The position numbers were made by a program, and so were the translations under genes. This document shows, piece by piece, positions 37,080 to 41,432 of a DNA stretch of 64,000 nucleotides (position 1 is the first letter of the stretch; every line of letters starts with the position of its first letter). Where the stretch lies: positions 480,001 through 544,000 of the forward strand of contig CAVRVY010000003.1 in the NCBI GenBank assembly GCA_963724765.1, read 5' to 3'. The notes under the pieces are model-generated. The model ran no database searches and had not been told where the DNA came from. It saw nothing but the letters and a program-made list of their open reading frames with translations. The DNA comes from an uncultured delta proteobacterium. Its GTDB lineage: Bacteria; Desulfobacterota; Binatia; Binatales; Binataceae.

Positions 37080-37796
37080 TTGGGAAAACAGGCGATTCTA
37101 GTAGTCGGGATGGGAGGCCTGGGTGTGCCGGCCGCGTGCGCGCTCGCGCGCGGCGGAGCCGGGCGGATCGGCATCGTCGATCCCGACCCGGTCGAACTTT
37201 CCAATCTCGCGCGCCAGGTAATTTACGGCGCGGCGAGCCTCGGACGGCTCAAGGTCGAGGCGGCTGCGGTGCGGCTTATTGAAGATCATCCGGATCTCGT
37301 CATCGAGACTTACCCGGTCGCACTCGACGCCATCAACGCCGCCGAATTGATCGCACGCTACGATTTCGTGATCGACGCGACCGACGATCCCGCGGCCAAG
37401 TTTCTAATCAACGACACCTGCCTCGCGATGGGTCGGCCGTTCGTTTACGCCGGCGTGCTGGGGATGACCGGCCAGGCGATGACGGTAGTGCCGGGGCGCA
37501 CGGCGTGTCTGCGATGCCTGTTCGAGCAGCCGCCGGAGCCGGGCGAGATCGCGACCTGCCGTGAGGCGGGAATAATCGGACCGGTCGCGGCGGTGATTGG
37601 CGAGATCGAGGCGGCCGAGGCGTTGCGCTGGCTTGGCGGCGGCGTGCCGGAGCTGGCGGGAAAAATCCTGACCTATGACGGGACCGCGAGCGGGCGCATC
37701 CGCACGCTTGAAGTGAGCGCGCGCGCCGGATGCGTGTGCGGCGCAGCCCGGCGTGCAGAGAACGCGGCGGCGTGGGCGCCGGCGCGCAACCAGTAA
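37080..37796 (+). CDS. MoeB/ThiF adenylyltransferase, catalytic-type, lacking the N-terminal RYSRQ helix
   Basis: GMGGLG, DPDPVELSNLARQ, DATD, CLRC, TC; in-frame TGA at 37035 excludes a long N-terminus. Confidence 0.88.
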   Translation: MGKQAILVVGMGGLGVPAACALARGGAGRIGIVDPDPVELSNLARQVIYGAASLGRLKVEAAAVRLIEDHPDLVIETYPVALDAINAAELIARYDFVIDATDDPAAKFLINDTCLAMGRPFVYAGVLGMTGQAMTVVPGRTACLRCLFEQPPEPGEIATCREAGIIGPVAAVIGEIEAAEALRWLGGGVPELAGKILTYDGTASGRIRTLEVSARAGCVCGAARRAENAAAWAPARNQ

Positions 37797-37809
37797 GAGG
37801 ATCTATGCG

Positions 37810-39072
37810 ATGAGCTACGTCACCAACCTCAAGTGCCGCGAGTGCGGCCAGGAATATCCGATCAAGCCGCTGCACGTATGCGAGGATTGCTTCGGCCCGC
37901 TCGAGGTTACTTACGATTACGCGAAGATTCGCGAGGCGATCTCGCGCGCGACGATCGCGGCACGCCCGCACAATCTCTGGCGCTATCGCGAGCTGCTGCC
38001 GGTCGACGGCGAACCCGAGGCGGGGCCGTTTTCGGGCTTCACGCCGCTGTTGCAGGCGCGTCGGCTTGGCGCCGAGCTGGGGCTCAAGAAGCTCTACATC
38101 AAGGACGACACGGTCAACCATCCTACGCTCTCATACAAGGACCGCGTGGTGTCGGTGGCGATCACCAAGGCGCGCGACTTCGGCTTCACCACGGTCTCGT
38201 GCGCCTCGACCGGCAATCTGGCGACCGCGGTCGCGGCGCATGCGGCGCGCGCGGGGCTTAAGTCGGTGATCTTCATGCCCGAGGGGGTCGAGTCGGGCAA
38301 AATCGTCGGCTCGTCGATTTACGGCGCGCGGGTGATCACGATTCGCGGCAACTACGACGACGTCAACCGGCTGTGCAGCGAGATCGCCGACAAGTACGGA
38401 TGGGCCTTCGTCAATATCAACCTGCGTCCCTACTACACCGAGGGCGCCAAGACCTTCGGCTTCGAGGTCGCCGAGCAACTCGGCTGGAAACTGCCCAACC
38501 ACATCGTGCTGCCGACCGCGGGCGGCACGATTTTGCCCAAGGTGGCCAAGGCCTTCAAGGAACTCAAGGAAGTCGGGCTGATTCATGGCGGCGAATTCAA
38601 GATTCATTGCGCGCAGGCGGCCGGGTCGGCGCCGGTCGTGCACGCGCTGCACAAGAACACCGACCTGATCACGCCGGTCAAGCCCGACACCATCGCCAAG
38701 TCAATCGCGATCGGCAACCCGGCCGACGGCTTCTACGTGTTGCGCGCGGTGCGCGAGTCGGGCGGATGGGGCGAGATGGCGAGCGACCCCGAGATCATCG
38801 ACGCGATCAAGCTGCTCGCGCGCACCGAGGGCATCTTCGCCGAGCCGGCCGGCGGCACCACGCTGGCCGTGACGCTGAAACTCATCGCCGCGGGGCGCAT
38901 CAAGGCCGATGAGAGCGTGGTAGTCTCGATTACCGGCAACGGTTACAAGACCCTGGAGGCGGTCGCCCGCAGTATCGAGCAGCCGCTGGTGATCGAAGCC
39001 CGGCTGAAGGACTTCGACGCAATCTACGAGAGTCTCGGCGACGGCAAACGCTCGCTCAAGGGCGCGGCCTGA
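37810..39072 (+). CDS. Threonine synthase-like PLP enzyme (possible O-phosphohomoserine sulfhydrylase)
   Basis: N-terminal CxxC..CxxCFGPLE, PTLSYKDR, ASTGN, EGAKT; SAM-regulated and next to a sulfur carrier. Confidence 0.88.
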   Translation: MSYVTNLKCRECGQEYPIKPLHVCEDCFGPLEVTYDYAKIREAISRATIAARPHNLWRYRELLPVDGEPEAGPFSGFTPLLQARRLGAELGLKKLYIKDDTVNHPTLSYKDRVVSVAITKARDFGFTTVSCASTGNLATAVAAHAARAGLKSVIFMPEGVESGKIVGSSIYGARVITIRGNYDDVNRLCSEIADKYGWAFVNINLRPYYTEGAKTFGFEVAEQLGWKLPNHIVLPTAGGTILPKVAKAFKELKEVGLIHGGEFKIHCAQAAGSAPVVHALHKNTDLITPVKPDTIAKSIAIGNPADGFYVLRAVRESGGWGEMASDPEIIDAIKLLARTEGIFAEPAGGTTLAVTLKLIAAGRIKADESVVVSITGNGYKTLEAVARSIEQPLVIEARLKDFDAIYESLGDGKRSLKGAA

Positions 39073-39163
39073 CCGCGCGGCGCCGCGCTTGTAAAGCCAT
39101 GTGGCGAGGCATATTCATCAAACGCTAGTCTCTGGGCTAGTCTGAGAGGTGGAACTTTCGATC

Positions 39164-39452: not shown

Positions 39453-40442
39453 GTGCCGGCGGCGCGGGCGCACAGCGTGCTCGAGCTGATCGGCAACACG
39501 CCGCTGCTCGAAATCACGCGCGTGACCGAGGGGCTGCTGCGCCCCGGCGTGCGGATTTTCGCCAAGCTCGAGGGCTTCAACCCCGGCGGCTCGGTTAAGG
39601 ACCGCGCCGCGCGCCACATGATCGAGTTCGGGCTCAAGCGCGGTGAGTTGCGGCCGGGCAAGGTGATCATCGACTCGACTTCGGGCAACACCGGGATCGC
39701 GCTGGCGATGGTCGGCGCGGCAATTGGCTATCCGGTGGAAATCGTGATGGCCTCCAATGTCAGCCGCGAACGCAAGAAGATAATCGAGGCCTTTGGCGCC
39801 AAGCCGATCTACTCCGATCCGCTGGAGGGCTCCGACGGCGCGATCACGATGGCGCGCAAGATCATCGCCGACAACCCCGAGCACTATTTCAAACCCGACC
39901 AGTACAACAACGAGGCCAACGCGCTCGCCCATTTCGATACCACGGGGCCCGAAATCTGGCATCAGACGCGCGGCCGCGTCACTCATTTCGTGGCCGGAAT
40001 CGGCACTGGCGGCACCGTGATGGGCACCGGGCGCTACCTCAAGTCGCAAAATCCGACGGTCAAGGTGATCGCGGTGGAGCCGGACGACGCGATGCATGGG
40101 CTGGAGGGGCTCAAGCACATGGCCTCGTCGATCGTGCCGGGCATCTTTCACGCCGAAGAACTCGACGACCGCCTCGCGGTCAGCACCGAGGACGCCTACG
40201 AGATGGTTTACGCGCTGGGGCAGATCGAGGGTGTGCTGGTGGGACAATCGTGCGGAGCGGCGCTGGTGGCCGCGTTGCGGGTCGCGTGTGGGTTGCGCGA
40301 GGGATGCGTGGTGACCGTGTTTCCGGATTTCGGTGACAAGTACCTGTCCACCAATCTGTGGATCGGATGGGAACAGTGGCGCAAGGAGCGCCTGCTAAAG
40401 CTCGTCAGCAAATGGAACGCCTCCGCGAGCGCTACTACCTGA
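39453..40442 (+). CDS. cysM: Cysteine synthase (CysM-like)
   Basis: IGNTPL, AKLEGFNPGGSVKDR, TSGNTG, GIGTGGT; start could instead be ATG 39396. Confidence 0.88.
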   Translation: MPAARAHSVLELIGNTPLLEITRVTEGLLRPGVRIFAKLEGFNPGGSVKDRAARHMIEFGLKRGELRPGKVIIDSTSGNTGIALAMVGAAIGYPVEIVMASNVSRERKKIIEAFGAKPIYSDPLEGSDGAITMARKIIADNPEHYFKPDQYNNEANALAHFDTTGPEIWHQTRGRVTHFVAGIGTGGTVMGTGRYLKSQNPTVKVIAVEPDDAMHGLEGLKHMASSIVPGIFHAEELDDRLAVSTEDAYEMVYALGQIEGVLVGQSCGAALVAALRVACGLREGCVVTVFPDFGDKYLSTNLWIGWEQWRKERLLKLVSKWNASASATT

Positions 40443-40657
40443 CCTACCCCAAGTCGCTCATCCGCGAGCCGCTGCTGTACCACCTGGTCAAGAAGTTCGA
40501 CCTGGTGTTCAACATTCGCGGCGCGAGCGTCTCGGAAGAGATGGGCCTGGTCGCGGTCGAGTTCGAGGGATCGAGCGAACAGATCGAGCGCGCACTCGCG
40601 TGGCTGCGCCAAAGCGGCGTCACGGTAGAGCCGATCGAAAAGAACGTAATCGAGTAG
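40412..40657 (+). CDS. Stand-alone NIL-domain protein
   Basis: LTYP..LIREPLLY.L...F.L..NIR.A.V...G....E.EG....GVTVEP pattern. Confidence 0.85.
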   Translation: MERLRERYYLTYPKSLIREPLLYHLVKKFDLVFNIRGASVSEEMGLVAVEFEGSSEQIERALAWLRQSGVTVEPIEKNVIE

Positions 40658-40736
40658 TTGCGCGCTCAGGGCCCCGTGGCCATCTTACTTCGCGAAGCTC
40701 TTCGGCCCGGCGCGTATTCGCGGCGCTCGCCTGTAT

Positions 40737-41432
40737 ATGCCACTGACCGATAAGCAGATCGAACGCTACAGCCGCCAGATAATCGTCCCCGGCGTCGGCG
40801 GACTCGCACAGGACCGGCTGCTCGCGTCTCGCCTTGCGATCGTGGCCGCGCCTGCGGACGCAGCCGGCGCGCTTGCCTACCTGGCCGGCGCGGGAGTCGG
40901 GCGAATCGCGGTGCATCCGGTCGGCGACCGCGCGCGGTACCGCGCGCTGCTTGAGCGGATGGGCGACCTCAACCCTGATGTAAGCATCCGAATGGCGAAC
41001 GACGACTCATCCGAGGCATCCGACCTGATGCTGGCGCTGATCGGCGACCCACACGTGGCCGAAGCAGCGGCGCACGTCTGGCGTGCGCCGCGCGTCGATG
41101 CGCAAGACGCGCACGCGCATCGTTATGGCGCCGCTATCGTCGCGAGGCTCGATACGCCGGGACGAATCGCACTTCTGCCGGAGCCACCGCCCTGTCTGCT
41201 ATGCGCCGACGCGGATTTGCTGAGTCTGCCACGCGCGCGCGCTGCGAATACCGGCGCGATCGCGATGGTCGCGGTGACCGAGGCGTTCAAGCTGCTGGCC
41301 GGCTATGCCGGCCAGCAGCCGACCGCCCGGCTTATCGAGTTCGATGGCTATGTCAGTCGGGCGCGCGCGCTTGGGCGGCGCGTAAGCGGCGGCGGCGATA
41401 AAACGCGCTGCGCTTGCGAGGCGGCGTCTTGA
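40737..41432 (+). CDS. Degenerate ThiF/MoeB-like protein (RYSRQ retained, P-loop lost)
   Basis: ERYSRQII.PGVGG.AQ.RL, YLAGAGVG, LNPDV, CLLC; no GxGxxG and no SNLxRQ. Confidence 0.8.
   Translation: MPLTDKQIERYSRQIIVPGVGGLAQDRLLASRLAIVAAPADAAGALAYLAGAGVGRIAVHPVGDRARYRALLERMGDLNPDVSIRMANDDSSEASDLMLALIGDPHVAEAAAHVWRAPRVDAQDAHAHRYGAAIVARLDTPGRIALLPEPPPCLLCADADLLSLPRARAANTGAIAMVAVTEAFKLLAGYAGQQPTARLIEFDGYVSRARALGRRVSGGGDKTRCACEAAS

Follow-up and report, generated by a model that had tools for sequence, protein, structure and literature searches.

Sequence analysis of a 64,000-nucleotide window from the 5.4 Mb genome of an uncultured soil bacterium of the class Binatia revealed two ThiF/MoeB-type genes in one sulfur amino acid operon, whose products, here called protein A and protein B, have each lost what the other has kept. 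Protein A possesses the adenylation machinery and lacks the N-terminal RYSRQ helix, while protein B possesses this helix and has a dead ATP site. Taken together, the evidence makes it probable that A and B are the halves of a pseudo-symmetric, E1-like heterodimer with one active site, which would activate the MoaD-like carrier encoded in the same operon.

Complementary losses in proteins A and B

The elements that define the two proteins, in positions of the window, are the following.

36851..36962, plus strand: S-adenosylmethionine (SAM)-I riboswitch aptamer (S box leader) at the head of the operon; Rfam RF00162, 94 bits (gathering score 44.4), full model 1-108
~36975..37010, plus strand: terminator hairpin with U tract, the expression platform of the riboswitch and the 5' boundary of gene A; a fold followed by UUUUUUGUUUU
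37080..37796, plus strand: protein A, active-type ThiF/MoeB adenylyltransferase lacking the RYSRQ helix at the N-terminus, resembling an active adenylation domain (AAD-like subunit); Pfam ThiF 212 bits, profile positions 20-234
40737..41432, plus strand: protein B, degenerate ThiF-fold paralogue, resembling an inactive adenylation domain (IAD-like subunit); Pfam ThiF profile positions 1-49, 31.6 bits (cut-off 28.1)

Protein A comprises 238 amino acids from a TTG start. It contains the P-loop GMGGLG (residues 10-15), the D34-P-D36 motif followed by S41-N-L-A-R45-Q46, K58 and the D99-A-T-D102-D motif, as well as the cysteine pairs C143-L-R-C146 and C218-V-C220. The crossover loop is short and carries C160 (TCREAG), with no catalytic Cys domain inserted. 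Across 29 A orthologues, G10, G12, G13, G15, D34, N42, L43, R45, Q46, K58, D99, D102, C143, C146, C160, C218 and C220 are invariant. The protein thus has the features of a ThiF/MoeB adenylation domain (GxGxxG, the Arg of SNLxRQ, the Lys and the Asp of DxxD) and lacks the N-terminal RYxRQ helix, and its match to Pfam ThiF (PF00899) begins only at profile position 20 of 238.

Protein B comprises 231 amino acids from an ATG start, with the N-terminus MPLTDKQIERYSRQ and the helix motif E9-R-Y-S-R13-Q14. The P-loop is replaced by AAPADA (residues 37-42), the SNLxRQ motif is missing, and the zinc cysteines C153-L-L-C156 and C225-A-C227 are present. Alignment with canonical enzymes showed that the DxD-SNLxRQ-Lys block is missing altogether and the crossover loop for the most part, while the dimer-interface helix is also kept. 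The functional ATP-site residues of PF00899 are therefore absent from B, although the ThiF fold extends over its whole length. A profile of 28 B homologues matched ThiF (1zfn, residues 3-245) at E 4e-16 and MoeB (1jw9) at E 8.5e-16 in a comparison with the PDB. The AlphaFold model of B reached a predicted local distance difference test score (pLDDT) of 86 and a predicted template modelling score (pTM) of 0.84, and its top Foldseek matches were ThiF, Uba4 and MoeB (E 2e-10 to 8e-9, TM 0.60-0.68). Despite its degenerate sequence, B is a complete ThiF fold. The first-pass annotation of this DNA had read the same motifs in both proteins, together with the missing RYSRQ helix of A and an in-frame stop at 37035, and all of these were recovered here.

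In the 28 homologues (47-76% identity) the invariant positions of the N-terminal part are L3, Q7, I8, R10, Y11, S12, R13, Q14, I15, G21, Q25, R27 and L28, and those of the remainder are Y48, G51, G53, V54, G55, R137, P151, P152, C153, C156, M177, L187, A188, G189, G204, C225 and C227. Among 127 B-family representatives of at least 180 aa, RYxRQ is found in 124, GxGxxG at the P-loop position in three and SNLxRQ in none, compared with 26, 24 and 19 of 26 canonical controls for the same patterns; the P-loop count in the B family is anchored to position, since a conserved GGxGQ turn otherwise mimics a P-loop. Short forms of B (168-201 aa, ending in ...GYETRVRV) occur in L024, L026, L027, L032, L033, L038, L041, L043, L044, L046, L048 and L055, and several of the loci with a short B are titled Candidatus Binatus. 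More distant B-like proteins from other Binatia families (L087, L088, P0234, P0249 and P0253) have a whole or partial GxGxxG (e.g. GLGGAG), with SNLxRQ already gone, and may represent intermediate stages of decay. The source names of B homologues include 'hypothetical protein' and 'molybdopterin-synthase adenylyltransferase', neither of which describes B.

We consider it most improbable that the truncation of A is an artefact of assembly or annotation, or that B is a functionless duplicate in decay. The reading frame of A is closed upstream by an in-frame TGA at 37035-37037, and the riboswitch terminator ends about 70 nt 5' of the TTG start; with the TGA, the riboswitch and the terminator directly upstream, a hidden N-terminus is impossible. 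The terminator was not reported by a simple terminator scan and was revealed by folding, the region 36955-37015 giving -24.3 kcal/mol (z -3.31, 0/200 shuffles equally stable). The contigs of two public DNA runs, one of which may be the window's own source sample, are identical to the window over 36973-37137 and 40620-40836, which include the starts of A and B. Furthermore, dozens of genomes, each assembled independently, show A truncated and B degenerate in the same way. No assembly error concealing an RYSRQ N-terminus, which the first-pass annotation had allowed for, was therefore found.

The weak Pfam ThiF match of B could be taken as a sign of decay, as could its rate of evolution, which is about twice that of A (tree path between the window and L007 of 0.35 versus 0.18; dN of 0.155 versus 0.074). 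However, the ratio of nonsynonymous to synonymous substitution rates (dN/dS) lies between 0.15 and 0.44 in all 17 B pairs, each below 0.45, and between 0.15 and 0.34 in all ten A pairs, which shows purifying selection on both proteins. The gene is also widely kept. A word-indexed search yielded 612 B homologues at E <= 1e-3 among 8000 candidates scored, the named relatives all being Candidatus Binataceae, and a full HMMER pass over 1.84 billion representatives yielded 102 matches at E <= 1e-30. Among 301 sampled genomes of the class Binatia, B was found at E <= 1e-22 in 48 of the 49 genomes of the window's family (45 of 46 without the unpublished G087, G208 and G213), with weaker matches in five other families of the class. 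A six-frame Pfam ThiF search of the genome returned A and two full-length paralogues and not B, which we attribute to the low sensitivity of such a search for a match of only 31 bits. The loss of conservation or of purifying selection on B that would have spoken against the first-pass annotation was thus not observed.

Co-inheritance and ancestry

We scanned 80 loci around B-like matches with the nine operon proteins of the window, and 54 of them hold a true B. The order A-ThrC-MoaD-CysM-NIL-B is found in 40 of the 54, and in three (L033, L034 and L047) A directly precedes B and the remaining four genes are located elsewhere; a search of two of these loci, L033 and L047, revealed no SAM riboswitch. 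Seven loci are cut by contig ends, one has only 1.7 kb upstream, and three hold no A within 7 kb. For two of these three, a short A is present elsewhere in the genome (G303 and G304); this statement on displaced copies concerns these two genomes alone, and L037 lies in the unpublished G305. The same SAM riboswitch was found 5' of the ThiF gene in seven of ten related loci searched.

Wherever a separate B was found, A is without its helix. No RYxRQ motif was found in the stop-bounded frame upstream of the P-loop of A in any of 42 loci, in the six cases from other Binatia families or in the two displaced copies, i.e., 50 of 50 A frames lack the helix. Where no separate B is present in the locus, on the other hand, the single ThiF gene encodes RYSRQ or RYSRH in 24 of 24 cases. 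The latter loci come from other Binatia, Syntrophobacter, Omnitrophota, Saganbacteria, Janibacter and others, and in most of them ThiF is the first gene of the same ThrC-MoaD-CysM-NIL operon; the SAM riboswitch precedes it in both loci of this kind that were searched (L066 and L077). The co-occurrence of the two degenerate forms across genomes, proposed as a check in the first-pass annotation, is borne out by these counts.

In the phylogenetic tree, all 35 A rows fall on one side of a branch with a Shimodaira-Hasegawa-like approximate likelihood ratio (SH-aLRT) support of 94, beside the single operon ThiFs, and a second branch (SH-aLRT 97) likewise separates all 56 B rows from the rest. In a first tree, L068_B was placed apart from the B clade, at the end of a very long branch, and it joined the B side after seven more distant B-like rows had been added; long-branch attraction may have affected the placement of the B rows. 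The trees are compatible with one origin each for A and B, that is, with a single duplication followed by reciprocal loss.

Two isolated matches were also recorded. In a Magnetococcales metagenome-assembled genome (L074), positions 7001-7261 match only the first 88 residues of B, at 44% identity, and no A-like match was found in the locus. P0100, with both NIL and ThiF Pfam matches, was considered as a real fusion and rejected, as it looks like a frameshifted gene call.

The predicted A:B dimer and its alternatives

To evaluate the pairing of A and B by structure prediction, the A+B pair was modelled from alignments built for this analysis and without ATP in three runs, next to three controls. 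The interface score ipSAE (interaction prediction score from aligned errors) was 0.92 in each run, compared with 0.03 for the best of the three controls; 58 of 80 solved complexes attain the pass mark of this score, compared with 2 of 110 mismatched pairs. Agreement between the runs was at least 99% of contacts, and the partner pLDDT was at least 84. In the model, residues 6, 9-14, 16-18 and 20 of B contact residues 40-53 of A, which hold the SNLARQ motif, and the interface helices (A 160-179 and B 170-185) pack as in the ThiF dimer. The modelling check proposed in the first-pass annotation thus places the RYSRQ helix of B on the SNLARQ motif of A with the controls passed. Of the 32 positions of B that are at least 90% conserved, 15 are among the 47 interface residues and 17 among the other 184 (Fisher p 2e-4). 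According to this prediction, A and B still look like dimer partners.

One column of the interface, A172/B174, contacts itself in the model. It holds Phe in 34 of 56 B rows and Ala or Val in 29 of 35 A rows, with Val, Thr or Gln in canonical enzymes, and such a pairing of large and small side chains could favour the heterodimer. Since the window's own pair is Val/Ala, this knob-and-hole arrangement was not counted as evidence.

In two published texts, the relevant arginines are described as follows. ThiF Arg11 and MoeB Arg14 are arginine fingers that come from the neighbouring subunit (PMC13139853), and the inactive subunit of eukaryotic E1s supplies its arginine to the active one, as the first-pass annotation had stated (PMC10557695). 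We infer that A and B form a dimer, that the arginine acts in trans and that the carrier of the operon is the substrate. An ancestral full-length ThiF/MoeB gene, heading a SAM-riboswitch operon of ThiF, ThrC-like enzyme, MoaD-like carrier, CysM and NIL, would have been duplicated once within Binatia. Copy A would have retained the full adenylation machinery (P-loop, Arg45, Lys58, Asp102, zinc site and crossover Cys160) and shed the N-terminal helix, whereas copy B would have shed its own ATP site and crossover loop and retained the RYSRQ helix together with the dimer-interface helix. R13 of B, the second Arg of RYSRQ, would be the counterpart of ThiF Arg11 and MoeB Arg14 by its position in the motif. 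In the A:B dimer, B would complete the ATP site of A in trans and stabilise A. The helix of A would have become dispensable because it serves only the ATP site of the partner, and that site is dead in B; the helix of B would stay invariant because A still needs it. The residue that follows GG in the carrier would first be trimmed, after which A would adenylate the C-terminal Gly. The resulting thiocarboxylate may then be used by the ThrC-like enzyme, which would form homocysteine from O-phosphohomoserine, and by CysM, which would form cysteine, as described for MetO/MetM and CysO/CysM.

A different explanation is that A is a homodimer without a finger, like E. coli TcdA, and that B is a pseudo-enzyme, e.g., an adaptor for the carrier, the pyridoxal phosphate (PLP) enzymes, the NIL protein or a sulfur donor. 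We regard this as unlikely, though clearly the most serious competitor. According to the same text, the finger is dispensable in MoeB as well as in ThiF, TcdA has none, and the R59A exchange of yeast Tcd1, whose Arg59 is donated to Tcd2, lost only 26% of activity (PMC13139853). A alone could therefore stay active. The conserved G21, G22, Q25 and R27 as well as R137, D139 and P141 of B, all outside the interface, could form a new binding site. In addition, B is linked more tightly to a hydrolase gene of the HAD family, found within 400 nt downstream of B in 42 of the 48 loci with enough downstream sequence, than to A, and A and B are unlinked in two genomes. However, a stand-alone A leaves unexplained why the strictest conservation in B falls on exactly the helix that A has lost, why this helix is missing from A wherever a separate B is found, and why the conserved residues of B are enriched at a ThiF-type dimer interface; nor does it account for an A+B model that passes its controls.

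Besides the dispensable fingers and the possible activity of A alone, several other points weigh against the heterodimer. The conservation of R137, D139, P141 and the G21-R27 segment, strong outside the modelled A:B interface and at some positions where canonical enzymes hold the adenylate, is left unaccounted for by it. The linkage of A and B is not universal: A, together with ThrC-MoaD-CysM-NIL, lies about 930 kb from B in one genome, and in a second the two are on different contigs. Because A forms one clade and B another, their perfect co-variation amounts to roughly one evolutionary event and does not count as many trials. The model may have passed because the predictor knew the solved ThiF and MoeB homodimers, which the pair resembles. 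The zinc site is not universal in B, since neither the CxxC nor the C-terminal CxC is left in L024, the one short B that was aligned. The evolutionary rate of B exceeds that of A. Metatranscriptome contigs of 90-95% likeness (runs X15 and X18) cover chiefly the relatives' genes for the ThrC-like enzyme, the carrier and CysM, with next to nothing on A and B. Finally, a separate full-length ThiF enzyme with a rhodanese domain might also serve the window's carrier. The subfunctionalised heterodimer paralleling eukaryotic E1s, as put forward in the first-pass annotation, is thus supported in part, by the co-occurrence, the selection on B and the A+B model, and the single event behind the co-variation limits that support. 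Overall, the heterodimer of A and B remains the reading that we favour.

The operon, its carrier and related systems

The window cluster (36851-44119, plus strand) consists of nine co-directional genes behind the SAM-I riboswitch. In addition to A and B, these are the following.

37810..39072, plus strand: threonine-synthase-like PLP enzyme, Cys-rich ribbon at its N-terminus; Pfam PALP 242 bits, NCBIfam PRK08197 327 bits (cut-off 303)
39149..39442, plus strand: MoaD/ThiS-type ubiquitin-like sulfur carrier with the C-terminus AIAGGE; Pfam ThiS 59 bits, NCBIfam SAMP1 63 bits (cut-off 60)
39396..40442, plus strand: CysM-type cysteine synthase; NCBIfam TIGR01138 cysM 368.5 bits, under the cut-off of 394, Pfam PALP 235 bits
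40358..40657, plus strand: stand-alone NIL domain protein; Pfam PF09383, 59 bits
41414..42313, plus strand: HAD-family hydrolase, whose start overlaps the stop of B by 19 nt; Pfam HAD_2 68 bits
42387..42947, plus strand: adenosine 5'-phosphosulfate (APS) kinase CysC; Pfam APS_kinase 203 bits
42911..44119, plus strand: sulfate adenylyltransferase (ATP sulfurylase); Pfam ATP-sulfurylase 326 bits, PUA_2 165 bits

The enzyme at 37810..39072 is a candidate for a homocysteine synthase that depends on the carrier thiocarboxylate (MetM-like), judging from the operon and the GapMind preprint. The NIL gene after CysM is kept both in loci with B and in loci without it. The HAD hydrolase may have as its target a phosphorylated pathway substrate or by-product. 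In a Pfam scan of the nine operon proteins, and limited to these, no E2-like family was found; the same scan showed no rhodanese domain on A or B and no JAB gene in the operon.

Of 45 carriers from B-containing loci, 44 have one to three residues after GG, 32 of the 45 ending in GGR, and one ends in plain GG; the carrier of the window ends in GGE. Because extra residues follow GG, the carrier would need to be trimmed. A second carrier system is encoded elsewhere in the window's genome (G000, contig C1:1419871-1423575; L001), comprising a JAB protease of 156 aa, a ThiS/MoaD-like carrier of 99 aa, a full-length ThiF with a C-terminal rhodanese domain of 390 aa and a PALP enzyme. This is the canonical layout of the Mec-CysO-MoeZ-CysM type, and its JAB protease is a candidate trimmer of the window's GG-E carrier.

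The presence of two further full-length ThiF+rhodanese proteins in the genome, one of them in this JAB-ThiS-ThiF-PALP cluster, raises the question of whether B pairs elsewhere, either as a B2 homodimer or with such an enzyme as a regulator or decoy. We hold this to be quite improbable: the ThiF+rhodanese enzymes need no donor, as they carry an RYSRH helix of their own, and B travels with A and the riboswitch operon and not with these enzymes.

A comparison with known systems supports a kinship of A and B in fold and family with E. coli MoeB and ThiF (1jw9/1jwa and 1zfn/1zud). Protein A shares their ATP-site residues, the zinc site of the CxxC...CxC type is the same, and their substrate is a ubiquitin-like carrier ending in GG, as proposed for A. 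Their N-terminal helix bears an arginine finger that acts across the dimer, on the other subunit (PMC13139853). However, MoeB and ThiF are symmetric homodimers with two active sites, and each chain contains both the helix and the ATP site. In A and B these features are on different polypeptides, and an A:B dimer would therefore contain at most one complete site.

The bacterial E1 BilD (Chambers et al. preprint, PMC10557695) combines an inactive and an active adenylation domain around one active site, like the proposed A:B dimer; its inactive domain donates Arg9 as in eukaryotic E1s, and it has a four-cysteine zinc site. Unlike in A and B, the BilD domains are fused in one chain and a catalytic Cys domain of about 80 residues sits in the crossover loop, and BilD acts in phage defence with an E2 and a deubiquitinase (PMC10557695), whereas A and B belong to a sulfur amino acid operon without an E2 gene. 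SAE1-UBA2 and NAE1/APPBP1-UBA3 are pseudo-symmetric dimers of an inactive and an active subunit, in which the inactive half gives the arginine, and A and B are likened to them on the basis of predictions. Eukaryotic E1s in addition possess a catalytic Cys domain and a ubiquitin-fold domain and pass the modifier to an E2, and both domains are missing from A and B. Since A and B are separate single clades, with A beside the bacterial operon ThiF, the likeness to eukaryotic E1s would be convergent. In the yeast dehydratase Tcd1-Tcd2, which forms cyclic N6-threonylcarbamoyladenosine (ct6A), two ThiF paralogues also work together, the inactive Tcd1 donating Arg59 and being needed for the stability of Tcd2 (PMC13139853). 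This pair differs from A and B in being eukaryotic, membrane-anchored and directed at tRNA, and Tcd1 keeps most of the fold and nucleotide site.

The operon itself shares a MoaD-like carrier, CysM-type enzyme and threonine-synthase-like enzyme with CysO/Mec/MoeZ/CysM of mycobacteria and MetO/Mec/MoeZ/MetM of Streptomyces (Hasebe 2024, via the GapMind preprint). The CysO and MetO pathways use a single MoeZ with rhodanese domain plus Mec, in contrast to the activator split into A and B, without rhodanese and with no JAB in the operon, that is seen here. The closest parallels of the A/B pair are BilD, SAE1-UBA2 and Tcd1-Tcd2, and it is a member of none of these groups. A literature search, with subscription journals and supplements outside its scope, recognised no described two-gene bacterial ThiF pair and no work on Binatia sulfur carriers, and the words 'heterodimer' and 'two E1' do not occur in a systematic 2006 survey of prokaryotic E1-like operons.

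In a broader sense, a ThiF/MoeB homodimer may have independently become an obligate two-gene heterodimer in one class, with the asymmetry of eukaryotic E1s and with the unsplit ancestor left in sister lineages, while the dead pocket of B (Arg137 and Asp139) may have taken on a new role in binding; we consider the case for this wider view to be evenly balanced. If A and B do dimerise, two separate genes would encode the parts of a bacterial E1-like enzyme that serves ordinary sulfur amino acid metabolism and whose evolution was independent of that of eukaryotic E1s and BilD. This would provide a natural and experimentally tractable system in which to study how duplication and reciprocal loss produce E1 asymmetry. 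Because the enzyme is still unsplit in the corresponding operon of sister lineages, matched forms from before and after the split are at hand, and these could be used to ask what the arginine-finger helix contributes and why half-dead dimers recur in the E1 superfamily.

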